A model generated the notes under the pieces. It saw nothing but the letters and a program-made list of their open reading frames with translations, was not told the origin of the DNA and did not search any database. A stretch of 39,012 nucleotides of DNA, from the NCBI GenBank assembly GCA_021781775.1, contig JAJXWE010000001.1, positions 1 through 39,012 of the forward strand, written 5' to 3'. The number at the start of each line of letters is the position of its first letter. The stretch's first letter is position 1. Below, piece after piece: positions 6,881 to 35,647 of this stretch. The stretch is from Pseudomonadota bacterium. Its GTDB lineage: Bacteria > Pseudomonadota > Gammaproteobacteria > Steroidobacterales > Steroidobacteraceae. The translations under genes were made by a program, and so were the position numbers.

Positions 6881-6927
6881 AGGGTGGTAGTGTGGATTAT
6901 CGGTTGATGGATTCGAAGACCGGCGGA

Positions 6928-8993: not shown

Positions 8994-9242
8994 ACCGCAG
9001 GAGCGGGGCGAACCATGCTGGCGCCCGACGCACCATGCTGAAGCAACAGCTCGCTGCCGGTTTGCATGAAGGGGGCTGTCACGTCGGTATACACCGGCGT
9101 GGGACGAAGAATCGGCCGCCCATGCTCCGGGCGCAAAAATGAGTACGACGTGGAGTCCCTTCCTGTTCACGCAAAACAGCACAGCGGCAGTTCCGGGAGG
9201 GAGACCCAATGTCATCAAACATACATCCGGGGGAGAGTTGTC

Positions 9243-12041: not shown

Positions 12042-14069
12042 GTGAACAGTATCGTGTCGCAACCCTTGTCTTCCGTCGAGGCGGAAGTCGGCCGGATTCG
12101 CGAGCTGCTCAATCAGCGGCAGCTGGAACCGGCACTCGCGGCCACCAAGGCTCTTGCCGCGCAGGTGCCCGAGAATCGGGACGTGCTTTACCTGCTTGCC
12201 CTGGCGCAGCGTCACCTGCAGCGGATCGAGGACGCGCTGGACACTCTTGAGCGGCTGGAGCGTCTGCACCCGCGGTTCAGCCGCATTTACCAGGAACGGG
12301 GCCATTGCTTCGTAGCGCAGCGTGATGCGTCAAGGGCCATCGACGCCTTTCTGCGGGCCGTCAACATCAACCCGGCGCTGCCCGCCAGCTGGAGCATGCT
12401 GGAGGGCCTGTATCGCATGACGGGTCAGGAGGACAACGCCCGCATGGCGGCCGGGCACGTCGAGACGCTGAAGGGTCTGCCGCCGGAGGTAGTCCGAGCG
12501 ACCTCGCTATTCTCCGACGGCGAACTGGCGGCGGCCGAGCAGATCACTCGTGCCTACCTGCTCGCGCACGGGGATCATATAGAGGCGATGCGGTTGCTTG
12601 CGCGGATCGGGATGGCAAGGGACGTGCTCGATGATGCCGAGATCCTTCTCGAGGCGGTGCTCGAGCGGGCGCCGGATTACCGGGCGGCTCGTCTTGACTA
12701 CGCACGGGTGCTGGTGGAGCGGCACAAGTATCCACGCGCCTGCGAGCAGCTCGAGCGGCTGCTCGAACTCGATCCTCCCAACAGGGAGTACCGGGTGTTG
12801 TACGCGACCGCCCGCGTTGGCCTCGGCCAGCACGAGCAGGCAATCAGCCTATACCGAGCGCTGCTCGCTGAGACGCCGGACTCGCCCGAGCTGCATCTGT
12901 CCGTGGCGCACGCGCTGAAGACGCTCGGACGCACGCCTGAGGCCATAGAGAGTTACCGCGCAGCGGCGCGCGCCCGGCCCAGCTACGGCGACGCCTATTG
13001 GAGCCTTGCCAATCTCAAGACCTACCGCTTCACGGACGAGGAGATCTCCTGCATGCGCGCCGAGGAGGCCTCTTCCGCCAGCTCGAACATCGACCGCTGC
13101 CACCTGTGCTTTGCTCTCGGCAAGGCGCTCGAGGATCGCGGCGAGTACGCCGAGTCCTTCGAATTCTATGCGCGCGGCAACGCGCTGAAACGCGCCGAGA
13201 GCCGCTACCGCGCCGAGATCATCGAGAACAACACCCGGCTGCAGATCGAGGTCTGTACGTCGGAGTTCTTCGCCGCGCGCGCGGGCAGCGGCGCGGCGAG
13301 CGAGGAGCCGATCTTCATCGTCGGACTGCCCCGCTCCGGCTCGACGCTCCTCGAGCAGATCCTGGCGTCGCATCCCCAGGTCGATGGCACTCAGGAGCTC
13401 GCCGAGGTGCCGCGTATCGTGCAGGATCTGCAGGGCCGCGATCCGGATCTAGACAACCCGCGTTATCCGGGCGGGCTGCGCGAGCTCGGGAACGAGCAGC
13501 TGCGGCGTCTCGGCGAGCGGTACCTTGCGGAGACGCGCGTCTACCGCGGCGACAGGCTGCGCTTCATGGACAAGATGCCGAACAATTTCCGGCATATCGG
13601 CCTGATCCACCTGATGCTGCCCAACGCGCGCATCATTGACGTGCGGCGGGAGCCCATGGCCTGCTGCTTCGGCAATCTCAAGCAGCTCTTCGCTTCGGGG
13701 CAGGAGTTCACCTACAGCATCGAGGACATCGCGCGTTACTACCGCACCTACCTCGATCTGATGGACCACTGGGACCGGGTGCTGCCCGGCAGGGTCCTGC
13801 GCGTGCATCACGAGGACGTGGTCGCGGATCTCGAAGTCAACGTCAGGCGGATCCTTGAGTTCTGCGGCCTACCGTTCGATCCGGCCTGCGTCGAGTTCCA
13901 CAAGACCGAGCGCAGCGTTCGCACCGCGAGCTCCGAGCAGGTCCGCCGGCCGATCTACCGCGAGGGGCTCGAGCAGTGGAAGCGATACGAGCCCTGGCTC
14001 GCGCCGCTGCGCGAGGCGCTCGGGGACGCGCTCTGGCGTTATCGCCCGGCGGGACCCACGGCGCAGTGA
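12042..14069 (+). CDS. TPR-repeat protein fused to a PAPS-dependent sulfotransferase domain
   Basis: 675 aa with a GTG start after GAGG. The N-terminal ~400 aa are TPR-like repeats. The C-terminal part has the 5'-PSB loop IFIVGLPRSGSTLLEQIL and a typical sulfotransferase body (...MPNNF.HIGLIHLMLPNARIIDVRREPMACCF...). This fusion is commonly encoded next to TonB-dependent receptors. Confidence 0.8.
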   Translation: MNSIVSQPLSSVEAEVGRIRELLNQRQLEPALAATKALAAQVPENRDVLYLLALAQRHLQRIEDALDTLERLERLHPRFSRIYQERGHCFVAQRDASRAIDAFLRAVNINPALPASWSMLEGLYRMTGQEDNARMAAGHVETLKGLPPEVVRATSLFSDGELAAAEQITRAYLLAHGDHIEAMRLLARIGMARDVLDDAEILLEAVLERAPDYRAARLDYARVLVERHKYPRACEQLERLLELDPPNREYRVLYATARVGLGQHEQAISLYRALLAETPDSPELHLSVAHALKTLGRTPEAIESYRAAARARPSYGDAYWSLANLKTYRFTDEEISCMRAEEASSASSNIDRCHLCFALGKALEDRGEYAESFEFYARGNALKRAESRYRAEIIENNTRLQIEVCTSEFFAARAGSGAASEEPIFIVGLPRSGSTLLEQILASHPQVDGTQELAEVPRIVQDLQGRDPDLDNPRYPGGLRELGNEQLRRLGERYLAETRVYRGDRLRFMDKMPNNFRHIGLIHLMLPNARIIDVRREPMACCFGNLKQLFASGQEFTYSIEDIARYYRTYLDLMDHWDRVLPGRVLRVHHEDVVADLEVNVRRILEFCGLPFDPACVEFHKTERSVRTASSEQVRRPIYREGLEQWKRYEPWLAPLREALGDALWRYRPAGPTAQ

Positions 14070-14070
14070 C

Positions 14071-15633
14071 ATGACGGCATCAGATCCTTCTCCATCCGGT
14101 GCTTCTCCCGCCGGCCCGCTCGAGGCGCGCTTCGACCTGCTGGTCGTGGGCGGCGGGATCAACGGCGCCGGGATCGCGCGCGATGCGGCCGGCAGGGGAC
14201 TGCGGGTGTGCCTTGTCGAGCAATCGGACCTGTCTTCGTTCACTTCCTCGGCGAGCACCAAGCTCATCCACGGCGGACTGCGCTATCTCGAATACGGCGA
14301 GTTCCGCCTGGTGCGCGAAGCGCTGGCCGAGCGGGAGCGTTTGCTCGCCATCGCCCCTCATCTCGTGCATCCGCTGCGCTTCGTGCTGCCGCACGCGCCC
14401 ACTCTGCGGCCGCGCTGGCAGATGCGCGCCGGCCTGTTTCTCTACGACCACCTGGGCGGCCACCGCCGGCTGCCGGGGTCGCGCTCGGTGGACCTGCGGC
14501 GCGCGCTCGCGGGCCGGGCGCTCAAGGCGGACTTTCGGCGCGGCTTCGCCTATTCCGACTGCCGCGTCGATGACAGTCGCCTCGTCGTCGCCAATGCGCG
14601 CGACGCGGCCGACCGCGGCGCGGTGATCCTCCCGCGTACCCGCCTGGTGACGGCGCGCGCCGCACACGACGGCTGGCGCGTGGAGTGCCGGAACCTCACG
14701 AGCGGCGAGAGCGTCCCACTGCGGGCCACGGCGGTGGTCAATGCCGCGGGCCCGTGGGTCAACGAGGTTCGGGAGGCATTCGGCCTGCAGGCCGCCGAGC
14801 CGATCCGGCTGGTGCGGGGTAGCCACCTCGTCCTACCGCGGCTGTTCGAGGGCGACCATGCGTACATCCTGCAGAATCCGGACCATCGCATCGTGTTCGC
14901 CATCCCATTCCAGGACGACTTCACCCTGGTCGGCACCACCGACGTGCCGCACACCGGCTCGCTCGAGAGCGTGGCCATCACGGCCGAGGAAATCGCCTAC
15001 CTCTGCGAGAGTATCAACCGCTACTTCAAACAGCCGATCCGTCCGCACAATGTGCTGTGGAGCTACTCGGGCGTGCGCGCGCTGCGCGACGACGGCGCGG
15101 CGGACGCCTCCGCCGTGACTCGGGACTACGAGCTGCTGCTGGAGCGGGCCGCTCAGGGCGCACCCCTGCTGTCCGTGCTCGGCGGCAAGATCACCACCTA
15201 CCGCAGGCTGGCGGAGGCGGCGCTCGCACTGCTGCAGCCGGTGATCGGCGGTGCGGCAACGCCCTGGACCGCCTCCGCCGCGCTGCCCGGCGGAGACATG
15301 CCGGGCGCCAACTTCGCGGAGTTCGCCGAGGAGGCGACCCGGCGCTGGCCATTCCTCGAACCACGACACCTGCGCAGGCTGGTGTGCGCGTACGGCACGC
15401 GCGTGGAGCGAGTGCTGCACGGGGCGCGCACGGCTGCGGACCTCGGCGAGCCTCTGGGCGCGGATCTCACCGCGGCAGAAGTCGACCACCTGCGGCGCGA
15501 GGAATGGGTCGTCACCTCGCAGGACATCCTGTGGCGCCGCAGCAAGCTCGGACTGCGCTTGACGGCGGACGAGCTGGAACGGCTCGATCGGTACCTGCAG
15601 GCCGAATCCCCACTGCGGAGAGCATACTCATGA
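14071..15633 (+). CDS. glpD: Aerobic glycerol-3-phosphate dehydrogenase (FAD)
   Basis: Start chosen at ATG 14071 (MTASDPS...), 1 nt after the upstream stop; the track ORF extension from 13855 lies inside the previous gene. The FAD fold is [53 protein letters not shown]. Confidence 0.9.
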
Positions 15634-17144
15634 CTCCCGTGACCCATGGCAAGTACGTCGGCGCGATCGATCAAGGCACCACCAGCACGCGCTTCATGGT
15701 GTTTGGACACCAGGGAGAGGTGCTTGCGAGCGCCCAGCTCGAGCATCGCCAGATCTACCCGCAGCCTGGCTGGGTAGAGCACGATCCGTTCGAGATCTGG
15801 ACCAACACGCGGCAGGTCATCGAGACGGCGCTCGACCAGGCCGGCCTGGGCGCCCGGAACCTCGTGGCGGTGGGCATCACCAACCAGCGCGAGACCACGC
15901 TGCTCTGGGACCGGCGCAGCGGCAAGCCGCTGCACAACGCTCTCGTCTGGCAGGACACCCGGGTCGCCGGCGAGGTCGCCGCCCTGGCGAGCGCGAGCGG
16001 CCTGGACCGGTTCCGCGGCAAGACCGGGCTGCCGCTCGCAACCTACTTCAGCGCACTGAAGCTCAAGCGACTGCTCGATGACGTCCCGCATGGGCGCGAA
16101 CTCGCCGAAGCGGGCGATGCCCTGTTCGGCACCATCGATTCGTGGCTGCTGTGGAACCTCACCGGTGGAACGCAGGGCGGCGTGCACGTCACGGACGTGA
16201 CCAACGCCAGCCGCACCCAGCTCATGAATCTCGCGACGCTGGCGTGGGACGACGAGCTGCTCTCGGCGTTCGGGGTGCCGCGCACCTGCCTGCCCCGCAT
16301 CGCTTCCTCGAGCGAAGTCTACGGGGAGTGTCGGCTGCCGGCGCTCTCCGGCGTGCCGATCGCCGGGGATCTCGGCGATCAGCAGGCCGCCCTCGTCGGC
16401 CAGACGTGCCTGCGGCGCGGCGATGCCAAGAACACCTACGGCACCGGCTGTTTCCTGTTGATGAACACTGGCGAACAGCCGGTGGCTTCGCGGTCGGGCC
16501 TGATTACGACGGTGGCCTACCAGTTCGGACGGGAGCGTCCCTGCTATGCGCTCGAGGGCTCGGTGGCGGTGGCTGGCGCCCTGGTGCAATGGCTGCGGGA
16601 CCGCCTGGGCATCATCAAGAGCAGCGCGGACATCGAGTCGCTCGCCCAGGAGGTCGAGGACAATGGCGATGTTTATTTCGTACCCTCCTTCTCCGGGTTG
16701 TTCGCGCCGCATTGGCGCTCCGACGCCCGCGGCGTCATCGCGGGACTCACCGGTTACGCGAGCCGCGCGCACCTGGCGCGCGCCGCGCTCGAGGCCACCG
16801 CCTATCAGACGCGCGACGTGCTCGAGGCGATGGAGAAGGACTCGGGCACTGCGCTCACCGAGCTGCGCGTCGATGGAGGCATGGTGGTGAACGAGCTGCT
16901 GATGCAGTTCCAGGCCGACCTTCTCGATGTCGGCGTGGTGCGTCCCCAGGTTACCGAGACCACGGCGCTCGGCGCCGCGTACGCGGCAGGCCTCGCCACG
17001 GGCTACTGGAAGAGTCGCGATGACCTGATCGCGAACTGGCAAGTCGATCGGCGCTGGCGCCCAGCCATGGGCGCCGAGCAGCGCGCACACCTGTATCACT
17101 CCTGGCAGAAGGCGCTCGAGCGCTCGCTGGGTTGGATTGACTGA
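15630..17144 (+). CDS. glpK: Glycerol kinase
   Basis: The start ATG 15630 overlaps the glpD stop (ATGA). The sequence [25 protein letters not shown]...[13 protein letters not shown]...WQDTR is canonical FGGY/GlpK. 504 aa. Confidence 0.93.
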
Positions 17145-17162
17145 CACGACGAGGGGATCGAG

Positions 17163-17888
17163 ATGGGAAGCGGGTTCTGGGGCGAGTTTGTCGGCACGGC
17201 GGTGCTCATCCTGCTGGGTAACGGCGTGGTCGCCTGCGTGGCGCTCGACAAGTCATTCGGCCACGGTGGCGGGTGGATCGTCATCACGGCAGGCTGGTGT
17301 TTCGCGGTCATGGCCGGGGTCCTCACGGCCCTCGCCCTGGGCGCGCCGGCCTACCTCAATCCCGCGGTCGCCATCGGGATCGCCGTGGCCACGGGCAAGT
17401 GGAGCGGCATACCGGGATATGTCCTTGCGGAGCTGCTTGGTGCGATGGCGGGCGCCACGCTCGTGTGGCTGCATTACCTGCATCACTGGGGGGTGACCCC
17501 CGATGCGGCCGCCAAGCGTGCCTGCTTCTGCACCGCGCCGGCCATCTCGCATCTCCCGGCGAACCTGCTCAGCGAAATCATCGGCACTTTCGTGCTGGTG
17601 CTGGTGGCCGCGGCGATCGGCTCCGCGCGGCTGGCCCCGCACGGCCTGCCGGCGGGCCTGGGCCCGGTCGTAGTGGCGTTCCTGGTGTGGGCCATCGGCC
17701 TGTCCCTCGGCGGCCCTACGGGGTACGCCATCAACCCCGCGCGGGACCTGGGGCCGCGCATCATGCACGCCGTGCTTCCCGTCGCGGGCAAGGGCAGCTC
17801 CGAGTGGGGCTACGCGCCGGTACCGGTGATCGGCCCGGTCGTTGGTGCCACGCTCGCGGGTTTGTGCGTACACCTATTGTCGATATGA
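17163..17888 (+). CDS. glpF: Aquaglyceroporin / glycerol uptake facilitator (MIP family)
   Basis: 241 aa, six hydrophobic segments and both NPA boxes (NPAVAIG and NPARDLGPR). Confidence 0.88.
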   Translation: MGSGFWGEFVGTAVLILLGNGVVACVALDKSFGHGGGWIVITAGWCFAVMAGVLTALALGAPAYLNPAVAIGIAVATGKWSGIPGYVLAELLGAMAGATLVWLHYLHHWGVTPDAAAKRACFCTAPAISHLPANLLSEIIGTFVLVLVAAAIGSARLAPHGLPAGLGPVVVAFLVWAIGLSLGGPTGYAINPARDLGPRIMHAVLPVAGKGSSEWGYAPVPVIGPVVGATLAGLCVHLLSI

Positions 17889-17906
17889 CAGCCCTGGAGA
17901 CCTCGC

Positions 17907-19277
17907 ATGCAGCAAGAATCACTCCAACTTGATGCCGCCGCGGTCCGCGGGATGTTCGACGAACGGCACATCGAGCGCGCGAAAGTCGGTGTGTTCGATA
18001 TCGACGGGATCCTGCGCGGCAAGTACATGGGGCGCGAGAAGTTCCTGTCCGCGCTCGAGAAGGGATTCGGGTTCTGCGACGTGGTGCTGGGGTGGGACTC
18101 CAACGACCAGCTCTGCGACAACGTGCGCTTCACCGGCTGGCACACGGCGTTCCCCGATGCCACCGCGCGCATCTTGCCGGCGACATGCCGCAACATTCCC
18201 TTCGAGCCGGACACCCCGCTTTTCCTCGCGGAGTTCTCCGGTGCCGCCGAGGCGATTTGCCCGCGCGGCACCCTGCGGCGGGTGCTAGACCGGGCCGCGC
18301 GCCTTGGCTACAGCACGCACGCCGCGGTCGAGTACGAGTTCTTCCTTTTTAAGGAAACGCCCGAGTCAGTGCGCAACAAAGGCTACCGCGATCTGCAGAC
18401 ACTCACGCCGGGCAACTTCGGGTACTCGGTGCTACGCAACTCGGTGCACGCGGAGTTCTACCAGGCGCTGCTCGATCTCGCCTCCGCCATGCGTATGCCT
18501 ATCGAGAGTCTGCACACCGAGACCGGTCCCGGGGTGCTCGAAGCCGCCCTCGCATACTGTGGGGCGCTCGAGGCGGCGGACCGCGCGGCGTTGTTCAAGA
18601 CCTTCGCGAAAGTGCTGGCGCAACGCCACGGCCTGATGGCGACCTTCATGGCCAAGTGGTCGAACCGTTATCCCGGCCAGAGCGGACACCTGCACCTGTC
18701 GCTGCAGCGCGCCGACGGTGCGCCGGTCTTTCACGATCCGGCCCGGCCGCACGAGATATCAGACGAGATGCGCTGGTTCATCGGCGGACAGCAGGCGCTC
18801 ATGCCGGAGTGCCTGGCGATGGTCGCCTGCACCGTCAACAGCTACTCGCGCCTCGTCCCCGGTTACTGGGCGCCGACCTCGGCGACCTGGGGCGTGGAGA
18901 ATCGCACCACGGCGCTGCGCGTCATCCGCGGGGGTGCCTCCAGCCAGCGCGTGGAGTATCGCATTGCGGCCGCCGACATCAATCCCTACCTGGCGCTCGC
19001 CGCGGCCATCGGCACCGGTCTGTGGGGCATCGAGCACCGCATCGAGCCCGATGCGCCGATGGTGGGCAATGCCTATGACCGTGAGCATCCGCCGCACCGC
19101 CGGCTGCCGGCGACGCTGGAGGAGGCGGCCGAGCGGCTGCTCTCATCCGAGGCAGCGCGCGAGCTGTTCGGGAACGCCTTCGTCGAGCACTTCGCCGCCA
19201 CCCGGCAATGGGAGGAGCGGGAATTTCGCAAGGCGATCACGGATTGGGAGTTGTCCCGTTACTTCGAGATCATTTGA
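17907..19277 (+). CDS. Glutamine-synthetase-family ATP-dependent ligase (gamma-glutamyl-amine synthetase type, PuuA/IpuC-like)
   Basis: 456 aa. GS catalytic-domain blocks: AVEYEFFLF, HTETGPGVLE, ATFMAKW...PGQSGHLHLSL, NSYSRLVPGYWAP, WGVENRTTALRV, VEYRIAAADINPYLALAA. It is encoded next to an ALDH and a GATase-type hydrolase, as in gamma-glutamylation pathways. Confidence 0.8.
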   Translation: MQQESLQLDAAAVRGMFDERHIERAKVGVFDIDGILRGKYMGREKFLSALEKGFGFCDVVLGWDSNDQLCDNVRFTGWHTAFPDATARILPATCRNIPFEPDTPLFLAEFSGAAEAICPRGTLRRVLDRAARLGYSTHAAVEYEFFLFKETPESVRNKGYRDLQTLTPGNFGYSVLRNSVHAEFYQALLDLASAMRMPIESLHTETGPGVLEAALAYCGALEAADRAALFKTFAKVLAQRHGLMATFMAKWSNRYPGQSGHLHLSLQRADGAPVFHDPARPHEISDEMRWFIGGQQALMPECLAMVACTVNSYSRLVPGYWAPTSATWGVENRTTALRVIRGGASSQRVEYRIAAADINPYLALAAAIGTGLWGIEHRIEPDAPMVGNAYDREHPPHRRLPATLEEAAERLLSSEAARELFGNAFVEHFAATRQWEEREFRKAITDWELSRYFEII

Positions 19278-19286
19278 GAGTCCCTC

Positions 19287-20678
19287 ATGAGCACCCTGTT
19301 ACAGACCATCAGTCCCGTCGATGGCCGCGTATATGTCGAGCGGCCGTTGGCCGACACGAAGGCCATTGACGCGGCGCTCGAGGCGGCGCGGCGCGCTCAG
19401 GTTACCTGGGCCGCCACGCCGGTCGCGACCCGAGTGGCGCTGCTTGGCCGCGCGGTCGATGTGTTCATCGCCAAGACCTCCGTCATCGCTGAAGAGATCG
19501 CCTGGCAGATGGGCCGGCCCGTAGCGCACGCCCCCGGCGAGGTTCGCGGCTTCGAGGAACGCGCCCGCTACATGCTGGGCATCGCCGAGCGCGCGCTTGA
19601 GCCCATCGATCCCGGACCGAAGCCGGGCTTCGTGCGGCGGATCAAGCGCGCGCCGCTCGGCGTCGTGGCGGTGGTCGCGCCCTGGAATTATCCCTACCTG
19701 ACGGCGGTGAACGCGGTGATTCCGGCCCTCGCCGCCGGCAACGCCGTCGTCCTCAAACATTCGCATCAGACGCCGCTGTGCGCGGAGCGCTTCGCCGAGG
19801 CATTCGCCGCCGCCAGCCTGCCGGTCGGCGTGTTCCAGTTCCTGCATCTGTCCCACGAGGACACCTCGCGCCTGATGGGCGACCCGCGACTCGGCAGCGT
19901 GTGTTTCACCGGTTCGGTCGCGGGCGGCAAGGCGGTAGTCGCGGCCACTGCGGCGGGCTTCGCGACCTCGGGCCTGGAGCTCGGCGGCAAAGATCCCGCG
20001 TATGTGCGCGCCGACGCCAACCTGGAGCACGCCATCGAATCGCTGACCGATGGCGCGTTCTTCAACGCCGGCCAGTCCTGTTGCGGTATCAAGCGTATCT
20101 ACGTGGCTGCGCCGCTCTACGAGCGCTTCGTGGAAGGGGTGGTCGGATTGGCGAGCCGCTACCGCCTCGGCTCGCCGCTCGACCCCCAGACGACCCTTGG
20201 GCCTGTGGTGCGAGCCGCAGCCGCGGATCATGTCCGCTCGCAGGTCGACGCGGCGGTGGCCGCGGGCGCCCGACAGCTCGTCGAGGGCCGCCACTTCCCT
20301 CGGGACGAGCGCGGCACGCCCTACCTCGCGCCACAGGTGCTCGTCGACGTCGATCACTCGCACACGATCATGTGTGAAGAAACCTTCGGTCCGGCGGTCG
20401 GCATCATGAAGGTCTCATCCGACGAGGAAGCCATCCGGCTGATGAACGACAGCGCCTTCGGGCTGACGGCGGCAGTCTATTCCGCAGACCCAGAGCGGGC
20501 CGAGCAGATCGGTGATCGCCTCGAGACCGGTACGGTGTTTCTGAATCGCTGCGACTATCTCGATCCGGCGCTCGCCTGGACCGGAGTGAAGCATTCGGGC
20601 CGCGGCTGCACGCTCTCCCGCGTCGGCTACGAGTACCTGACACGTCCCAAGTCCTACCATCTCCGGGTGCAACTATGA
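19287..20678 (+). CDS. NAD(P)-dependent aldehyde dehydrogenase
   Basis: 463 aa. Seen: VAPWNYP, the catalytic Glu block LELGGKDP and the catalytic Cys block FFNAGQSCCGIKRIYV. Confidence 0.9.
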   Translation: MSTLLQTISPVDGRVYVERPLADTKAIDAALEAARRAQVTWAATPVATRVALLGRAVDVFIAKTSVIAEEIAWQMGRPVAHAPGEVRGFEERARYMLGIAERALEPIDPGPKPGFVRRIKRAPLGVVAVVAPWNYPYLTAVNAVIPALAAGNAVVLKHSHQTPLCAERFAEAFAAASLPVGVFQFLHLSHEDTSRLMGDPRLGSVCFTGSVAGGKAVVAATAAGFATSGLELGGKDPAYVRADANLEHAIESLTDGAFFNAGQSCCGIKRIYVAAPLYERFVEGVVGLASRYRLGSPLDPQTTLGPVVRAAAADHVRSQVDAAVAAGARQLVEGRHFPRDERGTPYLAPQVLVDVDHSHTIMCEETFGPAVGIMKVSSDEEAIRLMNDSAFGLTAAVYSADPERAEQIGDRLETGTVFLNRCDYLDPALAWTGVKHSGRGCTLSRVGYEYLTRPKSYHLRVQL

Positions 20679-21841
20679 TGACTTCCTGGCACGCCAACTG
20701 GAACTACCCGACCCGGATCTGGGCCGGACCGGGCCGCATCGCCGAGCTCCCCAAGGCCTGCACCGAGCTCGGCATCCGCCGGCCGCTGCTCGTCACGGAC
20801 ATCGGCCTGCTGCGCCATCCCATGATCAGCGCCGCGCTCAAAACGCTGCCCGGCGCTGCGCTGTTCGGCGAAGTCAAAGGCAACCCCACAGGAGCCAATG
20901 TGGAAGCGGGCCTCGCCGCCTATCGTTCTGCGGGGCATGACGGCGTGGTGGCCTTCGGCGGCGGCTCGGCGCTCGATGCAGGCAAGGTCATCGCCTTCAT
21001 GAGCGGCCAGCGCCGGCCGATGTGGGACTTCGAGGACATCGGCGACTGGTGGACGCGCGCCGATCCGGCCGGGATCGCCCCGGTGGTCGCGGTGCCCACG
21101 ACGGCGGGCACGGGCTCCGAGGTCGGCCGCGCCAGCGTCATCCTCAACGAGGCGACCCACCAGAAGAAGATCATCTTTCATCCGCGGATGATGCCGGGCA
21201 TCGTGATCAGCGATCCCGGCCTCACCACCGGCCTACCCGCGCACGTTACCGCGGCCACGGGCTTGGATGCCTTCGTGCATTGCTTCGAAGCGTACTGCGC
21301 GCCGGGGTTCCACCCCCTCGCCGACGGCCTCGCCCTCGAGGGCATGCGCCTGATCGCCCGGTACCTGCTCCTGGCCTATGCGCGGGGTGACGACCTGGAG
21401 GCGCGCGCCAACATGCTGGCGGCGGCATCCATGGGTGCCGCCGCCTTCCAGAAGGGCCTGGGCGCCGTGCACGCCATCGCCCATCCGGTCGGCTCGTGGT
21501 TCGACACCCATCATGGCCTGACCAACGCCGTGATCCTGCCGTACGTCATGCGCCACAACCGCGCCGCCATCGCGGACAAGACTGTGATTATCGCCCGTCA
21601 GCTTGGCCTCGCCGCGCCCGGGTTCGACAGCCTGTTCGACTGGGTGCTCGAGTTCCGCCGCGCTCTGGGCATTCCGCACACGTTGGCGCAAATCGGCGTC
21701 TCCCTCGACAACGCCGCGGTCATCGGCGCGGAGGCGGCCGCCGACCCCTCGGCCGGCGGCAACCCGATTCCCGTGGAGGCGGTCGCGCTCGAGCGGATCT
21801 TTCGCGCGGCGGTCACCGGGGACCTCGACGCGGCAGCCTGA
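20675..21841 (+). CDS. Iron-containing (group III) alcohol dehydrogenase
   Basis: 388 aa. Seen: the GGGSALDAGK motif, VAVPTTAGTGSE, and metal-binding His residues in LDAFVHCFEAY and HAIAHPVG. Overlaps the ALDH stop by 4 nt. Confidence 0.88.
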   Translation: MMTSWHANWNYPTRIWAGPGRIAELPKACTELGIRRPLLVTDIGLLRHPMISAALKTLPGAALFGEVKGNPTGANVEAGLAAYRSAGHDGVVAFGGGSALDAGKVIAFMSGQRRPMWDFEDIGDWWTRADPAGIAPVVAVPTTAGTGSEVGRASVILNEATHQKKIIFHPRMMPGIVISDPGLTTGLPAHVTAATGLDAFVHCFEAYCAPGFHPLADGLALEGMRLIARYLLLAYARGDDLEARANMLAAASMGAAAFQKGLGAVHAIAHPVGSWFDTHHGLTNAVILPYVMRHNRAAIADKTVIIARQLGLAAPGFDSLFDWVLEFRRALGIPHTLAQIGVSLDNAAVIGAEAAADPSAGGNPIPVEAVALERIFRAAVTGDLDAAA

Positions 21842-21845
21842 TGTC

Positions 21846-22700
21846 ATGAGCGCGCCTCGCGTCCTGGTGGTCGATGGCAACGTGGCGGACATCCGTCGCA
21901 GGCAGATCGAGGCGGTCGGCTACGACACTGCGACCAGCTATGCCCGCGTCCTGCGGCGTTTGCGCCCGGACCTCGAGTGCGACATCGCGTACCCGGCGGA
22001 CGTGCACCCCGTGGCGGAGCTTGCGGGCGCACTCGATCGCTACGACGGCGTGGCGATCACCGGCTCGGCGCTGTGCATCGCCGACGGCGGCCCCGCCGTC
22101 GAGCGGCAGATCGATCTGGCGCGCAGCGTGTTCGATCGCGGGGTGCCGTTGTTTGGTAGCTGCTGGGGACTGCAGGTGGCAGTTGCGGCCGCGGGCGGGG
22201 TCGTCGAGCGCAATCCCCGTGGCCGGGAATTCGGCTTCGCGCGACGGATCCTGCTGACCGAGGCGGGCCGCGCACACCCGCTGTTCTCGGACAAGCCGGC
22301 AGTGTTCGAGGCCCCGACCGTGCACCGCGATCACGTCGCGAGACTGCCCGAGGGTGCGCAGGTGCTGGCCGTCAACGAGATGGGAGTGCAGGCGGCGACG
22401 TTCAGTCACCGCCGGGGAACGTGCTGGGGCGTGCAATACCACCCGGAATACGACTACGGAGACATCCGCGCCGTCGCGCAACGCTACGGGACGGCGCTGG
22501 TCGATGCCGGCCTGTTCGCTGGCCCAGAGGATCTCGATGATTTCGCGGCCGACATGGCGGCGCTGCAGGCCGATCCGGCGTGCGAGGCGCTGCTGTGGAA
22601 ACACGGCCTGGGACCCGCCATGCGCGCCGAGCCGCTGCGCCTGCGGGAACTCGCCAACTGGCTGACCCTGCAGGTCGAGCCGCGCGCCTGCTCCCGCTGA
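21846..22700 (+). CDS. Class I glutamine amidotransferase-like protein (candidate gamma-glutamyl-amide hydrolase, PuuD/IpuF-like)
   Basis: Start chosen at ATG 21846 (MSAPRVLVVDGN...), 4 nt after the ADH stop. Nucleophile elbow GSCWGLQV and GVQYHPEY (His) of the GATase1 triad are present. 284 aa. The track ORF extension from 21603 lies inside the ADH gene. Confidence 0.75.
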   Translation: MSAPRVLVVDGNVADIRRRQIEAVGYDTATSYARVLRRLRPDLECDIAYPADVHPVAELAGALDRYDGVAITGSALCIADGGPAVERQIDLARSVFDRGVPLFGSCWGLQVAVAAAGGVVERNPRGREFGFARRILLTEAGRAHPLFSDKPAVFEAPTVHRDHVARLPEGAQVLAVNEMGVQAATFSHRRGTCWGVQYHPEYDYGDIRAVAQRYGTALVDAGLFAGPEDLDDFAADMAALQADPACEALLWKHGLGPAMRAEPLRLRELANWLTLQVEPRACSR

Positions 22701-22748
22701 GAGGATCGGCGCCGGCAACCGGAGCAGATTGACAATGGGGGGCTTCCC

Positions 22749-24161
22749 ATGGTGCAAGCAGAGCCGCAGCTGTCCCGCTCCCTGAGCGGCCTCCACTTGT
22801 GGGGCATCGCCGTGGGACTGGTCATCTCCGGAGAGTACTTCGGTTGGAGTTACGGCTGGGCGCAGGCCGGGACGCTCGGCTTCCTTGTGACCACGGCGCT
22901 GATCGCCGTGATGTATACCACGTTCATCTTCAGCTACACCGAGCTCACCACCGCCATCCCGCACGCCGGCGGCCCGTTCGCGTACAGCTACCGTGCCTTC
23001 GGCCCCGTCGGCGGATACCTGGCGGGATTCGCGACGCTGGTGGAATTCGTGTTCGCGCCGCCAGCGATCGCGCTCGCCATCGGAGCCTACCTGCACGTGC
23101 AGTTCCACACTCTGGACGCGCGTATGGCCGCGGTGGGCGCCTACGCGGTGTTCATGACGCTCAACATCGTCGGGGTGATGATCGCCGCGACCTTCGAGCT
23201 GGTCATCACGCTCCTCGCCATCGCCGAGCTCGTCGTTTTCATGGCGGTGGTCGCTGGCGGCTTCAGCTGGGCGCATTACGTTCATCTCGGCTGGGCGGGA
23301 CATGCGCACCCGTCCGCGGCCATGTTTGGGGGGATCTTCGCCGCGATCCCGTTCGCGATCTGGTTCTTCCTCGCCATCGAGGGGGCGGCCATGGCGGCCG
23401 AGGAGGTCAAGAACCCCTCGCGCACCATTCCTCCGGCTTACATCGGCGGCATCATCACCCTGTTGGCACTCGCCTTCGGCACCATGATATTCGCCGGCGG
23501 GGCGGGCGACTGGCGCCGGCTCGCCAACATCAACGACCCCCTGCCGCGGGCGATGATGATCGTCGTGGGGGAGAACAGCGGCTGGATGCACCTGCTGGTG
23601 TGGATCGGACTCCTCGGGCTCATCGCCTCGTTCCACGGCATCATCATGGGCTACTCGCGGCAGATCTTCGCGCTCGCCCGCGCGGGCTTCCTGCCGGGGT
23701 TCCTCGGGCGTGTACACAAGCGGTGGCGGACACCTTACGTCGCGGTGCTCGCGGGCGGCGCCGTGGGCATCGCGGCCATCTACTCCGACAAGGTGATCAC
23801 CATCGCGGGGCAGTCGCTCACGGCGAGCATCGTGACGCTGTCGGCGCTGGGGGCCATCGTCATGTACATCGTAAGCCTCGCGAGCCTGCTGCGCCTGAGG
23901 CGGTGCGCGCCGGACTTGCCGCGGCCCTTCCGCACACCGCTGTTCCCGGTCTTTCCGCTGATGGCGCTGGTGCTGGCGGTCATCTCGCTCATTTCGATCG
24001 TCTATTACAATCCGCAGCTCGCGGTCATATTCGTCGTGCTCAGCACGCTCGGCGGAGCGGCCACCCGGTATCGCCTGCGGCGCCGGGGTCTGAACGGGGA
24101 CGATGCGCTGCTGCGGACGGGGGACTCACGGCAGATGGCGCCCGAAGCCGATTCCGAATAG
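22749..24161 (+). CDS. APC-superfamily amino-acid/ethanolamine permease (Eat/EutP type)
   Basis: 470 aa, about 12 TM. The N-terminal LSRSLSGLHLWGIAVGLVISGEYFGWSYGWAQAGTLGFL... strongly resembles the ethanolamine permease subfamily as I recall it. Confidence 0.75.
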   Translation: MVQAEPQLSRSLSGLHLWGIAVGLVISGEYFGWSYGWAQAGTLGFLVTTALIAVMYTTFIFSYTELTTAIPHAGGPFAYSYRAFGPVGGYLAGFATLVEFVFAPPAIALAIGAYLHVQFHTLDARMAAVGAYAVFMTLNIVGVMIAATFELVITLLAIAELVVFMAVVAGGFSWAHYVHLGWAGHAHPSAAMFGGIFAAIPFAIWFFLAIEGAAMAAEEVKNPSRTIPPAYIGGIITLLALAFGTMIFAGGAGDWRRLANINDPLPRAMMIVVGENSGWMHLLVWIGLLGLIASFHGIIMGYSRQIFALARAGFLPGFLGRVHKRWRTPYVAVLAGGAVGIAAIYSDKVITIAGQSLTASIVTLSALGAIVMYIVSLASLLRLRRCAPDLPRPFRTPLFPVFPLMALVLAVISLISIVYYNPQLAVIFVVLSTLGGAATRYRLRRRGLNGDDALLRTGDSRQMAPEADSE

Positions 24162-24241
24162 ACGCGCCCCGGCCGGCGCACATGCGGCATGCAGCGGCGC
24201 AATACGGCTGTCACGAAACTCATAGCGTAAAGGCGGATTCA

Positions 24242-26179
24242 ATGAACCGATCACCTCGAAGAAGCCCGGCCACATCCATCCGGATTTCCAAGGCGGCAGT
24301 CCTGCTCGCGAGCCTCGCGTTCGCCCTGCCCGCGCCAAGCCTTGCGGCCGCCCGTGGCGGCAAGGCCGCTACGGAGCATACCCTGACCCCGATCAAACAC
24401 GTCATCCTGATCATCGGGGAGAACCATACCTTCGACAACCTGTTCGCGACCTACGTGCCCCCCAACGGCCAGACGGTGTGGAATCTGCTGTCCATGGGAA
24501 TCGTGACAGCGAACGGCACGCCCGGCCCCAACGCCGCGCTCGCCCGCCAGTGGCAGGCCACCGACACGACGGTCTATTCGTCCGATCCGACCCACACACA
24601 GCCGCTCGCCGCGCTGCCGGCCCTGAACACGGCCGATGCGGTGGCAAAGCCGCGTTTCGCCACGGTCGAGCAGGCCGCGCTTCGCGAGCCCGGCCTGTCG
24701 CCCGGCGATGAACGGCTGCTGCTGACGGGCACCACGGGCCAGCCCGCGGACGTGATCGACAAGCGCTTCCCGAGCCAATTCCCGAACGCGCCCATCGACG
24801 TCACCCGTTACATCCCCTATGACTCGTACTGGGTCAGTCCGGTGCATCGCCTGTTCCAGATGCGCCAGGAACTCGATTGCTCGCCCGCGGCCATGACTGC
24901 GGTCAATCCGAGTGGCTGCCGCGCGGACCTGTTCCCCTGGGTGGAGCTTACCGTGGGCGCAGGCTCGAGCGGCGCCCCGCGGCCCGAGAACTACAATGAG
25001 CAGACGACGCAAGAAGGCCCCGCGGCCATGGCGTTCTACAACATGGCGCGCGGCGACGTCCCCTATCTCGCCAAGCTGGCGCGTGAGTACGCCCTGGCGG
25101 ACAACTATCACCAGGCGGCGCTCGGTGGTACCGGCGCCAATCACGTCATGCTCGGCTACGGCACGCTTATCTACTACGCGGACCACCGGGGCCAGCCGGC
25201 CCGGCCGCCCTTCAACCAGATCGAGAACCCGAACCCCGCGCCGGGTACCAACAATTGGTATGTCCAGGACGGCTACAAGGGCGGTTCCTACACCGAGTGC
25301 GCCGACCCCGCCCAACCCGGCGTGGCGGCGGTGGACAAATACCTCGCGGCCTTGCCCTACGCGGCGTTCAACCACGGCGACTGCCGGCCAGGGGCGTATT
25401 ACCTGGTCAACAACTATGAGCCCGGCTACCACGGCAACGGCACGCCAGCGCTGCTCGGTGCGGATCATTTCACCGTCCCGCCCACCCGGCAGGGCAACAT
25501 CGCGCTGCTCATGAGCCGCTACCACGTCAGCTGGAAGTACTACGGTGAAGGCTGGCAGGGCGGCCGATTGCGCCCGCACCTCGGGCGCTTCTGCCGCATC
25601 TGCGACCCGTTCCTCTATTCGACGCAGATCATGACCAACCCCGCGCTGCGCGCGGACAACGCCGGCATCCACGCCCTGTATGCCGATATCCGCAGCGACA
25701 CTCTGCCCGACGTCTCCTTCGTCAAACCGGATGAGCTGCTCGACGGACACCCGGCCTCCTCCAAGGTGGATCTGCTGGAGGGATTCATCCGCAAGATCAT
25801 CGACATGGTTCGCTCGCGGCCGGCTCTCTGGAAAGATACCGCAATCATGATCACCATGGACGAAGGCGGCGGGTTTTGGGACGAGGGGTACGTGCAGCCG
25901 ATCGACTTCTTCGGCGATGGCACCCGGGTGCCACTCATCGTGGTGTCGCGCTACTCACGCGGAGGACGGGTGGTCCACACTTATTACGATCACGTCTCGT
26001 TCGACAAGTTCGTGGAGGCCAACTGGGAGATCGGTCAGCGCATCTCCCGCTACAGCCGCGACAACCTGCCGGACCCCATCGCCTCGCCCGCCAGTCCTTA
26101 CGTGCCGCTCAACGCGCCAGCGATCGGCGACCTGATGGGCATGTTTCAGTTCAAGGTCCATGGGCCGCACGGCGGTTGA
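24242..26179 (+). CDS. Secreted phosphoesterase-family protein (phospholipase C / AcpA acid phosphatase family, PF04185-like)
   Basis: Start chosen at ATG 24242 (MNRSPRRSPATSIRISKAAVLLASLAFALPAPSLAAA, a signal peptide). The family signature IKHVILIIGENHTFDNLF and a later ITMDEGGGFWD block are present. 645 aa. The track ORF extension from 22799 lies inside the permease gene in another frame. Confidence 0.8.
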   Translation: MNRSPRRSPATSIRISKAAVLLASLAFALPAPSLAAARGGKAATEHTLTPIKHVILIIGENHTFDNLFATYVPPNGQTVWNLLSMGIVTANGTPGPNAALARQWQATDTTVYSSDPTHTQPLAALPALNTADAVAKPRFATVEQAALREPGLSPGDERLLLTGTTGQPADVIDKRFPSQFPNAPIDVTRYIPYDSYWVSPVHRLFQMRQELDCSPAAMTAVNPSGCRADLFPWVELTVGAGSSGAPRPENYNEQTTQEGPAAMAFYNMARGDVPYLAKLAREYALADNYHQAALGGTGANHVMLGYGTLIYYADHRGQPARPPFNQIENPNPAPGTNNWYVQDGYKGGSYTECADPAQPGVAAVDKYLAALPYAAFNHGDCRPGAYYLVNNYEPGYHGNGTPALLGADHFTVPPTRQGNIALLMSRYHVSWKYYGEGWQGGRLRPHLGRFCRICDPFLYSTQIMTNPALRADNAGIHALYADIRSDTLPDVSFVKPDELLDGHPASSKVDLLEGFIRKIIDMVRSRPALWKDTAIMITMDEGGGFWDEGYVQPIDFFGDGTRVPLIVVSRYSRGGRVVHTYYDHVSFDKFVEANWEIGQRISRYSRDNLPDPIASPASPYVPLNAPAIGDLMGMFQFKVHGPHGG

Positions 26180-26232: not shown

Positions 26233-26958
26233 TTAAGCGGCGACAAGACTGTACTCGTGGTGGAGTCCGCCGAGAATGGGGTTGGCGCGGACGGAATAGG
26301 TTTCACCACGGCGATGACGTGAGACGGACTTCGGGAGGGCGATGGTCGGAGGATCCGGAATCCCCGGTCCCAAAGACATATGCGGTCGGCCGCGGTTGTA
26401 GTGCTGAATCCATGTTTTCAGCAACGTACGCAAATGCGATTCGGAGAGCGGAATCACCCAGTCCAGGCACTCCCTGCGTAATGTGCCGATGACCTGCTCG
26501 CAGAGGGCATTCATCTTCGGACAGTGAGGGGCGGAGCGCAGTACACGGAGTCCCAGAGCCTGGACCGATTCATCGAGCCCGGGGGAGAAGATACTGTCCC
26601 GGTCGTGGAGCAGGAATCGATATCGGTGATCGAGGGTGGCAACTTCGCGCAGTTGCTCCAGCGTCCAGGCCGCGGTAGGGTGAACCGTGACGTTGCCGTG
26701 GACCAAGCGACGGGGCCCGCGCTCGATCACGACGAAGACGTAGAGCATGCGAAAGTTCGCTGTGATGGCGAGACAAAAGTCGCAGGCTAAGATTCCTTGG
26801 GCGTGCAGGCGCAGGAAGGTCGACCAGCGCAGATCCCCTCGTGGCCTGCCCGGCGGGCGCGGGGGCATGTACTTGCGCACGGTGCCAGGAGAGATCCGGA
26901 TGCCGAGCTTCAACAGCAACCAGTGAGCGATTGAGCAATGCGCCCCGATGGCGAGCAT
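26233..26958 (-). mobile_element. 5'-truncated rve (integrase-core, DDE) transposase gene, an IS remnant
   Basis: 241 aa. The DDE core appears intact (ACDF..., HDRDSIF..., NALCEQ, spacing about 60 and 35 aa), followed by LLKTWIQHYNRGRPHMSLG. The N-terminal HTH part found in full-length relatives is absent: a stop sits directly upstream of the ORF, and the homology ends at the AT-rich tract near 26978. Confidence 0.75.
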
Positions 26959-27008: not shown

Positions 27009-27347
27009 ATGGGCAAGCGCGAATATCTCGGGCAGCTTGAGTTGATGGTATTGCTAGCGGTCGTCAGGCCATCTTCCCAAAAGGCCTATGGCGTATCGAT
27101 TGCACGTGACATCACCCGAATCAGCCGGCGGCAAGTGGCGCTGGCGAGCGTTTATGCGGCTTTGGAGCGGCTGGAGAAGAAGGGCTTCGTGGTTTCGAGC
27201 CTCGGGGAACCGCTGGTTGAGCGAGGCGGCAAGGCACGCACTTACTTTCGACCGACTTCGGCAGGGATCCAGGAAGCGCGCCAGACTCAAGCGACGCTCA
27301 TGCGGCTCAGCGGGGATCTATCCACCCTCAAAGGACAGCCCGCGTGA
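27009..27347 (+). CDS. PadR-family transcriptional regulator
   Basis: 112 aa from ATG 27009. The winged-helix pattern LGQLELMVLLAVVR..QKAYGVSIARDI...SRRQVALASVYAALERLEKKGFVSS is typical of PadR. Sampled 60-nt lines here are about 50% G+C. Confidence 0.85.
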   Translation: MGKREYLGQLELMVLLAVVRPSSQKAYGVSIARDITRISRRQVALASVYAALERLEKKGFVVSSLGEPLVERGGKARTYFRPTSAGIQEARQTQATLMRLSGDLSTLKGQPA

Positions 27348-27967
27348 CGATGCGAGAGGAGCCGACCTTCGCCGTCTGGCTCTTGAAGCATTTCGTCGCA
27401 AAAGAACGAAGGGAGTCACTGTTGGGTGATCTGTTTGAAGAATTCCAGGCGGGTCGAACATACTGTTGGTATTGGCGAGAAACGCTTGCGGCCCTCTTTA
27501 TATCCATGCGTCGCGGTGCGCGCGGGGTTTTTTCTTGGTGCGGCGCTCAAGTCGTTCTGGGGCTTGTCGCGCAATCTCTTGTTGTCTGGGCCGTCCTGCT
27601 TTCGGAGCAGTATCGAGAGCATTGCCCTAATTTGCCCGCCTATTCGCGCGACTCGACCGCTCTAATGCTATGGGCGGGGATGCTCCAGATCGCGATTGCT
27701 CTCGTGGTCTGGCTCAATCCACTGGACCGTGCTGCCCGTTCACACCGACGGCCCAGACTCTTCCGACTGTCAGTTGCAGCCTTCGCCGCTGTCGGGCTCA
27801 GCAGCGGCGCGTTCACTTGGGCAAGTACGGCTTCTTGCTCAATCGGCCCCTTTGCTTGTCAGTCCCCGACCATGCATTCATGCGCATCCCGCGTTGGTGC
27901 GGCTCCCGAGACACGACAGTCTGTGGGGCGTCCGAGTCGGCTCGCCCTGCGGGCCAGCTTGCACTGA
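27344..27967 (+). CDS. PadR-associated membrane protein (unknown function)
   Basis: 207 aa, GTGA overlap with the PadR stop (alternative ATG at 27350). The N-terminus AVWLLKHFVAKERRESLLGDLFEEFQAGR..CWYWRETL matches the conserved leader of proteins encoded after PadR genes, notably in Acidobacteria-type genomes as I recall. About 4 hydrophobic segments follow. Confidence 0.6.
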   Translation: MTMREEPTFAVWLLKHFVAKERRESLLGDLFEEFQAGRTYCWYWRETLAALFISMRRGARGVFSWCGAQVVLGLVAQSLVVWAVLLSEQYREHCPNLPAYSRDSTALMLWAGMLQIAIALVVWLNPLDRAARSHRRPRLFRLSVAAFAAVGLSSGAFTWASTASCSIGPFACQSPTMHSCASRVGAAPETRQSVGRPSRLALRASLH

Positions 27968-29965: not shown

Positions 29966-30220
29966 TCAGCTGCTCGGGCGTGAGCGGCTCAGTGCGATAG
30001 GCGCTGTCTCGAGACGACGCCGGAGGTCCGCCAACTCTCGGTCGCGACGCCCAAGCAAGCTCTGTAGGTCCCGGTAGGCTGCATAATAGTGGTCGACCAG
30101 CGCAGCAAGTTTACCGAGTTGTTCGCGGAGCTGCGCGGCTTCGCGCCGTAGCCGTAGAGTCGGCGCATCCGCGCGCGCTCTGCGCGCTGACTGGGGAGCT
30201 GAATCAGACGTTGTGCTCAT
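29966..30220 (-). CDS. ginD: Small helical/coiled-coil protein, fourth gene of the recombinase operon (GinD-like)
   Basis: 84 aa, Arg/Leu/Ala/Glu-rich with heptad-like stretches (LRREAAQLREQLGKLAALVDHYYAAYRDLQSLLGRRDRELADLRRRLE). Its ATG overlaps the stop of the upstream recombinase (ATGA at 30217-30220). The assignment rests on position and size only. Confidence 0.55.
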   Translation of the reverse strand: MSTTSDSAPQSARRARADAPTLRLRREAAQLREQLGKLAALVDHYYAAYRDLQSLLGRRDRELADLRRRLETAPIALSRSRPSS

Positions 30221-33860: not shown

Positions 33861-33863
33861 GTT

Positions 33864-35364: not shown

Positions 35365-35647
35365 AGCTCGGCTCTCGAAGTCGCACAGACCCTCCCCGGA
35401 CCCCTCCCGGCTACTCGCCTCTTGCAGAGCGCCTTGGGAAAGGAAGGGGGAGTCTAGAAGAGATCGGAAAGAGATGGAGGGCGGGCTTGCTGGAGTTCCC
35501 AACATATCACGCCGGACTTGCCGTCAAGATCTGCGCGCGACCATTCTGGCCGTGCTCGCGAGCGCCTCCGGCGATCCTGACGGCTTCGCTGCGGCGTGGG
35601 GCTTCGTCCTCGGGCAATCCCGCCCGAGATCAAGACGGAGCTCGCTC

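Follow-up and report, generated by a model that had tools for sequence, protein, structure and literature searches.

A nine-gene string joining glycerol, ethanolamine-type, and phosphoesterase genes in an uncultured gammaproteobacterial lineage

Introduction

Ethanolamine can be catabolized by a gamma-glutamylation route, in which ethanolamine is converted to gamma-glutamylethanolamide, an iron-type alcohol dehydrogenase (Fe-ADH) and an aldehyde dehydrogenase (ALDH) carry this on to gamma-glutamylglycine, and glycine and glutamate are the end products (PMC6529630, PMC9397018, PMC10132767). For Chromohalobacter salexigens and Agrobacterium tumefaciens, the route is a proposal (Vetting et al. 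2015, cited in PMC10132767), its first step has been demonstrated in Streptomyces coelicolor with GlnA4 (PMC6529630), and the published pathway families are PF00120, PF00465, PF00171, and PF05013 (PMC9397018, Table 2). In Phaeobacter MED193, the pathway proteins of the eto operon are induced during growth on phosphoethanolamine; extracellular PhoX frees ethanolamine from this compound, which induces the gamma-glutamyl operon (PMC10132767). Growth of Pseudomonas aeruginosa on phosphatidylcholine (PC) involves PlcH and lipases together with the glp, bet, and fad pathways (PMC4113454). Here, we describe a string of nine genes in which a glycerol module, a putative ethanolamine module, and the gene for an exported phosphoesterase follow one another on the same strand. 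The string lies in a stretch of 39,012 nucleotides (nt) from a Steroidobacteraceae bacterium (assembly GCA_021781775.1, contig JAJXWE010000001.1, positions 1 to 39,012), which was analyzed as a whole and is called the window below.

The first-pass annotation of this DNA knew of no described operon with this composition, and our literature search for one found nothing. However, both the amine pathway and its feeding from an extracellular phosphoester have already been published (PMC10132767, PMC6529630, PMC9397018), as has the PC scheme (PMC4113454). The concept is thus known already, the parts are all of known kinds, and the arrangement is confined to one uncultured soil gammaproteobacterial lineage. 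What is new is the presence of all parts in one string, the uncharacterized phosphoesterase subfamily and its link to glp genes, and a PuuD-like hydrolase in the pathway.

Composition and boundaries of the gene string

Genes were called from an open reading frame (ORF) listing combined with Pfam and NCBIfam profile searches. The nine members of the string, including a glutamine synthetase (GS)-like ligase and a hydrolase of the class-I glutamine amidotransferase (GATase) fold, are as follows.

14071-15633, + strand: glpD, aerobic glycerol-3-phosphate dehydrogenase (NF008899, 727 bits; cutoff, 360)
15630-17144, + strand: glpK, glycerol kinase (TIGR01311, 721 bits; cutoff, 590)
17163-17888, + strand: MIP-family channel, putative glycerol facilitator (glpF) (Pfam MIP, 90 bits; TIGR00861, 127 bits, below its cutoff of 171)
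17907-19277, + strand: GS-like gamma-glutamyl-amine ligase, putative ethanolamine gamma-glutamylase (PF00120, 327 bits)
19287-20678, + strand: ALDH, putative gamma-glutamyl-aminoacetaldehyde dehydrogenase (PF00171, 407 bits; conserved position after the GS-like gene)
20675-21841, + strand: Fe-ADH, putative gamma-glutamylethanolamide dehydrogenase (PF00465 and PF25137; conserved position)
21846-22700, + strand: class-I GATase-fold/peptidase C26 hydrolase, PuuD-like, putative gamma-glutamylglycine hydrolase (PF00117, 67 bits; PF07722, 40 bits)
22749-24161, + strand: ethanolamine permease (Eat) (TIGR00908 equivalog, 579 bits; cutoff, 382)
24242-26179, + strand: exported PF04185 phosphoesterase of the AcpA/phospholipase C (PLC) superfamily, uncharacterized subfamily, 645 residues (PF04185, 161 bits)

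From glpD through the phosphoesterase gene, the junctions measure -4, 18, 18, 9, -4, 4, 48, and 80 nt, all nine genes being on the + strand; the genes, their order, and all eight distances match those of the first-pass annotation exactly. GlpD, GlpK, and Eat pass their NCBIfam equivalog cutoffs, and the profile matches of the glp, amine, permease, and phosphoesterase genes bear out the module assignments proposed earlier. No terminator-like site was found in any junction, as had been claimed, and the region as a whole holds 7 such sites against 7.3 expected from shuffles. Promoter-like matches across the region were at chance level, and the 48-nt spacer, the 80-nt spacer, and the stretch after the phosphoesterase gene folded no better than shuffled sequence. 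From the spacing and the absence of terminator-like sites, we infer that the string may be co-transcribed.

The string is bounded by three further features.

9066-11927, + strand: TonB-dependent receptor gene, first in the co-directional run (Pfam Plug and TonB_dep_Rec_b-barrel)
12042-14069, + strand: tetratricopeptide repeat (TPR) and sulfotransferase gene, 675 amino acids (Pfam Sulfotransfer_3 and TPR)
26233-26958, - strand: truncated insertion sequence (IS) integrase-core fragment, right boundary (Pfam rve_3)

The TPR-sulfotransferase gene stops 1 nt before the glpD ATG and is itself preceded, across a gap of 114 nt, by the TonB receptor gene. By spacing alone, the co-directional run therefore comprises 11 genes: the nine co-directional genes described earlier stand, but the run that holds them is longer. 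The TonB receptor gene is a possible but uncertain member of the functional unit. The TonB receptor–TPR-sulfotransferase pair recurs in one locus of the amine-module survey described below (L031) and in L084 to L086.

On the right, the IS fragment begins 53 nt past the phosphoesterase stop codon, and other assemblies of this organism break at this fragment. Three further assemblies of this organism, NCBI GCA_021783685.1 among them, carry the identical string. The GC content at third codon positions (GC3) is uniform from the sulfotransferase gene through the phosphoesterase gene (0.83-0.90) and falls to 0.61-0.74 in the genes to the right.

A putative gamma-glutamyl ethanolamine module

The four enzymes and the permease make up a predicted gamma-glutamylation route for ethanolamine, in which the specificity of the ligase is likewise predicted. 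Like the published pathway, the module clusters a PF00120 ligase, a PF00465 Fe-ADH, and a PF00171 ALDH with an ethanolamine transporter and has the same predicted end products. It differs in its last step, for which the window encodes a PuuD-like protein of the class-I GATase/C26 fold and not a member of the PF05013 formylglutamate-amidohydrolase family. No PF05013 protein is encoded in the string, where the fourth enzyme belongs to PF00117/PF07722, and its translation shows a Cys motif (GSCWG) and a His-Glu motif (HPE). A PF05013-type neighbor was seen in a Rhodobacteraceae variant of the module. The transporter is an Eat permease of the APC type, as in many Streptomyces clusters, and not the TRAP system EtoVWX. 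A further difference from the published clusters is the setting of the module, which shares its string with glpDKF and a phosphoesterase gene. The module documents a putative proteobacterial form of the gamma-glutamyl ethanolamine pathway in which the hydrolase is PuuD-like and the permease is Eat. The canonical eut system, with the EutBC ammonia-lyase, is a different matter: among the 35 window proteins scanned against Pfam, none matched the EutB or EutC families, and the window has only an EutR-like AraC regulator that falls below its model cutoff.

The GS-like protein is a member of PF00120 but is no true glutamine synthetase by the GlnA model; it scored below all GS and PuuA equivalog cutoffs (GlnA TIGR00653, 214 versus 429 bits; PuuA model, 188 versus 650 bits). 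It is about 40% identical to the protein of PDB entry 5dm3 and to IpuC, which is annotated as gamma-glutamylisopropylamide synthetase. We take 5dm3 to be the ethanolamine ligase of C. salexigens; a literature search for the entry gave nothing relevant. Since annotated proteins share only about 40% identity with the ligase, the assignment to ethanolamine draws mainly on the adjacent Eat gene and on the enzyme set.

With the GS-like protein as the query, 80 genome loci were gathered to survey the conservation of the module. The order GS-ALDH-FeADH-GATase is kept in most of them, in Gammaproteobacteria and Alphaproteobacteria, including a Legionella lytica plasmid, and a close homologue of Eat also follows the module in three loci (L009, L010, and L013). 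The nearest relatives of the window proteins (about 80% identity for the GS-like protein and 81-83% for the phosphoesterase) come from Steroidobacteraceae and from unclassified gammaproteobacterial metagenome-assembled genomes. In the closest relatives of the module (L009, 16210-21342; L013, 16232-19282), GS-ALDH-FeADH-GATase-Eat is followed by an ABC transporter, which in L009 consists by scan of a binding protein, an ATPase, and two permeases and in L013 of ORFs of matching sizes; in L009, a class-III aminotransferase gene follows, and not a phosphoesterase gene. In five other loci (L022, L025, L028, L038, and L056; positions of about 15.3-17.0 kb in each), an FGGY-family kinase gene and about 2.5 kb of further genes lie between the ALDH and Fe-ADH genes. 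This kinase is 38-44% identical to the window GlpK, and the loci are mostly alphaproteobacterial. These variants suggest that a related pathway acts on another amine, perhaps one that bears a polyol.

The glycerol module and the conservation of the whole string

The glycerol genes resemble the classical glpFK/glpD regulon in that GlpK and GlpD pass their equivalog cutoffs and a MIP channel gene is adjacent. They differ from it in the order glpD-glpK-MIP, in the divergence of the MIP protein, and in the absence of glpR from the window. We surveyed 80 metagenome contigs carrying homologues of the window MIP protein, 49 of which had enough sequence upstream and 55 downstream. In 40 of the 49, glpK lay directly upstream of the MIP gene; the full glpD-glpK-MIP order recurred once (L097; 1 of 37 contigs). 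The departure from the glpFK/glpD arrangement that had been pointed out earlier thus holds for the three-gene order, but glpK followed by the channel gene is normal for this MIP family. The unusual part is therefore the fusion to the amine module, which was found downstream of the MIP homologue in none of the 55 contigs.

The reverse comparison gave the same picture. None of the 80 GS-like-module loci carries the phosphoesterase gene, and glpD-glpK lies nearby in only one, where it is not contiguous with the module. Since no related locus among the 80 joins the module to glpDKF or to the phosphoesterase gene, the combination of nine genes is particular to this lineage, and the synteny search called for in the first-pass annotation shows a composition that is not conserved. 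A search of a plasmid collection gave no close DNA match, only similarities to single genes.

The exported phosphoesterase

The last gene of the string encodes a clear member of PF04185 (161 bits; gathering score, 23) that passes neither curated subfamily model. Among curated models, that of the Burkholderia acid phosphatases (AcpA type), TIGR03397, fits it best, at 136 bits against a cutoff of 363; the PC-specific PLC model TIGR03396 was matched in fragments, at 110 bits against a cutoff of 580. PF04185 is the only Pfam domain in the protein and ends at residue 597 of 645, without a match to the C-terminal extension typical of PC-PLCs, and the stretch of about 190 residues that separates the N-terminal motif from the Pfam core is likewise unmatched.

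Residues were placed by alignment to AcpA (PDB 2d1g), to a PLC structure (9gye), and to 26 aligned homologues. E60, N61, T297, H503, D540, and E541 align with AcpA E43, N44, H350, D386, and D387 and with the PLC "GPT" motif. By this alignment, E60/N61 and D540/E541 would be metal ligands, T297 would occupy the nucleophile position, and H503 would be the conserved histidine; the residues at the catalytic positions are kept in 22 to 26 of the 26 homologues. The protein thus shares with AcpA of Francisella and Burkholderia and with PC-PLCs (2d1g and 9gye) the fold family, the N-terminal motif IKHV..GEN, Thr as the residue in the nucleophile position, the GH and DE(G)GG (metal-ligand) motifs, and a signal peptide. 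It is unlike them in lying far below both subfamily models and in the "D-H" pair, whose His, after the DE(G)GG motif of the AcpA/PLC structures (window residue 548), is Glu in 7 and Ser in 18 of the 26 sequences of the subfamily. This replacement marks a possible active-site difference.

A signal-peptide-like N-terminus was seen by eye in 26 of 26 homologues (positive charge, then a hydrophobic core, with an A-x-A-like site preceding the conserved TPIKHV motif), and no clear twin-arginine motif was seen by eye in the N-terminus. Export of the protein presumably extends beyond the periplasm. A structure prediction (AlphaFold) from the 26-sequence alignment was too poor for use (mean predicted local distance difference test [pLDDT] score, 43), the homologues being at least 59% identical to one another.

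Neighborhoods of phosphoesterase orthologues

We read 12 distinct neighborhoods of the subfamily, checking identities by tblastn. They are listed below with the identity of the orthologue to the window phosphoesterase and with the neighboring genes, GDPD denoting glycerophosphodiester phosphodiesterase.

L174, 70%: glpK (68% to the window GlpK), MIP, phosphoesterase, and esterase genes in this order, with junctions of -4, 6, and 54 nt; betaine-type catabolic genes
L180, 71%: glpK (68% orthologue), MIP, and phosphoesterase genes in this order
L178, 70%: glpD (66% orthologue) divergent from the phosphoesterase gene; betaine-type catabolic genes
L181, 60%: GDPD gene, convergent and adjacent
L087 and L179, 70-71%: dimethylglycine-dehydrogenase-like genes and a LysR regulator gene; in L087 additionally an OpuAC-type ABC transporter and an MttB-family methyltransferase
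L084, 81%: inositol monophosphatase, TonB-dependent receptor, TPR-sulfotransferase, and phn (C-P lyase) genes
L177, 83%: TPR-sulfotransferase and HD-domain genes
L090, L175, and L182, 61-64%: multicopper oxidase gene

Neighbors related to glycerol or glycerophosphodiesters occur in 5 of the 12 contexts, across two phosphoesterase clades about 70% apart. The recurrence of glp, GDPD, and betaine-type genes beside the orthologues supports a functional link of the enzyme to glycerol and head-group metabolism, and the earlier suggestion of such a tie holds for orthologues of 60-71% identity. The betaine-type neighbors in L087, L174, L178, and L179 appear to parallel the ethanolamine module of the window. 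A TPR-sulfotransferase gene recurs near the orthologues in L084, L177, L087, and L178, and L175 carries a Y_phosphatase3 gene beside its orthologue.

Proposed function of the string

We propose that three modules are fused in the string, in a manner specific to this lineage, and jointly use the water-soluble parts of glycerophospholipids, a reading that we judge to be about evenly poised between right and wrong. The exported phosphoesterase would hydrolyze head-group phosphoesters outside the cytoplasm. Its likeliest substrates would be glycerophosphoethanolamine (GPE) and/or the monoesters phosphoethanolamine and glycerol phosphate, giving glycerol, ethanolamine, and phosphate; for GPE, cleavage on the glycerol side followed by dephosphorylation would yield the right products, as would phosphoethanolamine together with glycerol phosphate. 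Glycerol would enter through the MIP channel, be phosphorylated by GlpK, and be oxidized by GlpD to dihydroxyacetone phosphate. Ethanolamine would enter through Eat and be gamma-glutamylated by the GS-like ligase, after which Fe-ADH and then ALDH would oxidize gamma-glutamylethanolamide to gamma-glutamylglycine, and the PuuD-like hydrolase would split the latter into glycine and glutamate. The encoded uptake functions are for glycerol and ethanolamine, not for glycerol-3-phosphate (G3P) or phospho-bases, which fits dephosphorylation outside the cell, a process for which PhoX of Phaeobacter sets a precedent (PMC10132767). Intact phosphatidylethanolamine (PE), named as a substrate in the first-pass annotation, is less likely, because PLC-type cleavage of PE yields diacylglycerol and not glycerol, and the string has no acyl-ester hydrolase; in L174, on the other hand, the phosphoesterase gene is followed by one for an esterase.

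The scheme resembles PC use by P. aeruginosa, where an extracellular enzyme of the PF04185 superfamily also works together with GlpF, GlpK, and GlpD and with catabolism of an amino-alcohol head group, so that each lipid part is consumed. It is unlike that system in that the genes of P. aeruginosa are scattered in separate regulons and serve choline as the head group, whereas the window has one string and, as predicted, ethanolamine; in addition, the window enzyme does not bear the PC-PLC equivalog signature, and linked fatty-acid or lipase genes are absent. If the proposal is right, the recovery of phosphorus, nitrogen, and carbon from phospholipid head groups would be coupled in one string, having so far been documented only as separate regulons (Phaeobacter and P. 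aeruginosa), and the AcpA/PLC superfamily would gain a testable hypothesis of function for one of its large branches, found in soil Gammaproteobacteria and so far unstudied.

Several observations weigh against this proposal. The nine-gene composition was found only in assemblies of this organism, and two closer orthologues of the phosphoesterase (81-83%) have no glp or amine genes nearby. The string encodes no lipase, acylhydrolase, or GDPD. The phosphoesterase fits neither curated subfamily model, which precludes a substrate call, and no solved-structure or functionally annotated protein seen is more than about 40% identical to the GS-like enzyme. Transcription may read through into the string from the TonB receptor and sulfotransferase genes upstream, for which the scheme does not account. 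Furthermore, an IS fragment abuts the phosphoesterase gene, whose position could therefore stem from rearrangement.

This last point leads to the best-surviving alternative, in which glpDKF, the ethanolamine module with Eat, and the phosphoesterase gene adjoin by accident, through rearrangement in an IS-bearing region, and are separately regulated with no shared substrate. We regard such a juxtaposition as rather unlikely. It would account for the absence of the arrangement from both sets of 80 loci, for the IS fragment directly after the phosphoesterase gene, for the presence in the window of a tRNA-Phe gene with an integrase gene and of a second recombinase gene, and for the fact that the two largest gaps (48 and 80 nt) are the last two junctions. 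It would also fit locus L031, in which genes for an MFS transporter, an FAD oxidoreductase, a TonB receptor, and a sulfotransferase, as in the upstream flank of the window, lead directly into the GS-like module without glpDKF. However, at only 18 nt the gap from glpF to the GS-like gene could hardly accommodate a separate promoter, the modules are not set apart by any terminator-like site, GC3 stays uniform along the string, and the linkage of glp and phosphoesterase genes recurs in both clades.

The window looks like the glp-phosphoesterase unit as it still exists in relatives, with the ethanolamine module placed between glpF and the phosphoesterase gene. The simplest reading is that of a variable region in which the glp-phosphoesterase unit and the ethanolamine module were combined, a direction of evolutionary events that we infer. 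Horizontal transfer of the string was considered and is not supported: GC3 is similar to that of the native-looking genes upstream, and the upstream flank is syntenic with L031.

A second alternative holds that the phosphoesterase is a broad exported phosphatase for phosphorus limitation, the glp link reflecting only the removal of the glycerol that glycerol phosphate yields, and the ethanolamine module being an unrelated nitrogen-source pathway. The conserved AcpA-type catalytic residues, the best curated match to the acid phosphatase subfamily, and the orthologues beside inositol monophosphatase and phn C-P lyase genes (L084), Y_phosphatase3 (L175), and TonB-dependent receptor genes agree with phosphate scavenging. 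We nevertheless consider it improbable, because the gene ends a carbon and nitrogen catabolic string and is not beside pst or pho genes, its orthologues lie repeatedly inside betaine-type catabolic clusters, and no Pho-box-like sequence precedes the gene or the string. The search for the latter used the Escherichia coli consensus, which may not be the motif of this lineage, with at most 3 mismatches; it gave nothing near the string and matches at chance level. A stretch containing CTGTCAC in the 80-nt spacer was rejected as a Pho box, being missed by the 3-mismatch search and too near the start codon to substitute for a -35 element.

Finally, it is very unlikely that the GS-like/ADH/ALDH/hydrolase module degrades another amino alcohol (e.g., aminopropanol or alaninol), in which case the phospholipid reading would fail for that half: the GS-like protein is about as similar to IpuC as to 5dm3 and meets no equivalog model, and module variants with other transporters (Pot-like ABC and APC permeases of about 33% identity) and extra enzymes exist, but the adjacent permease is well above its ethanolamine permease cutoff, the enzyme set corresponds step for step to the published ethanolamine route (PMC9397018, PMC6529630), and a gene for an EutR-like regulator is nearby.

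Extending the proposal of joint glycerophospholipid use beyond the window, it is possible, if doubtful, that the phosphoesterase subfamily as a whole (Steroidobacteraceae, Dyella, Rhodanobacter, and many soil metagenome contigs) cleaves glycerophosphodiesters or head-group esters to free glycerol and not to G3P, as an alternative to GlpQ/Ugp. Lineages would then swap head-group modules, of the betaine/choline type or for ethanolamine, and the window would hold the most complete single-string head-group catabolon so far.

Flanking genes and mobile elements

The remaining features of the window flank the co-directional run on both sides.

57-132: tRNA-Phe gene
372-1667: tyrosine integrase gene (Arm-DNA-binding, Phage_int_M, and Phage_integrase domains)
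2907-3929, - strand: AraC-family regulator gene (best match NF007522 EutR, 150 bits over the full length; cutoff, 319; weaker match to the choline regulator GbdR)
4170-8541, - strand: malate synthase A, PF12831 FAD oxidoreductase, and MFS transporter string, divergent from the TonB receptor gene
27009-27967, + strand: small gene, PadR-like by eye, then a membrane-protein gene (GC3, 0.61-0.66)
33864-35096, - strand: second tyrosine recombinase gene

The AraC-family gene, about 10 kb from the ethanolamine genes, is a candidate for their regulator. The pair of FAD oxidoreductase and MFS genes (75-85% identity) also occurs near phosphoesterase orthologues in the betaine-type clusters L087 and L174 and upstream of the GS-like module in L031. 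Since ethanolamine and betaine catabolism both end in glycine, a route from glycine through glyoxylate to malate is conceivable.

A tRNA gene followed by a tyrosine integrase gene is the usual signature of a genomic-island insertion site. The window holds no second copy of the tRNA-Phe 3' end and no long repeats flanking the string, and the tRNA was the only match in an Rfam scan. To the right of the IS fragment, the low GC3 of the PadR-like and membrane-protein genes gives them the look of inserted foreign DNA. Further along, at 30217-36142, two large overlapping ORFs without a Pfam match (704 and 589 amino acids) precede the second tyrosine recombinase gene, and a RadC-like JAB-domain gene follows it; this region is probably another mobile element.

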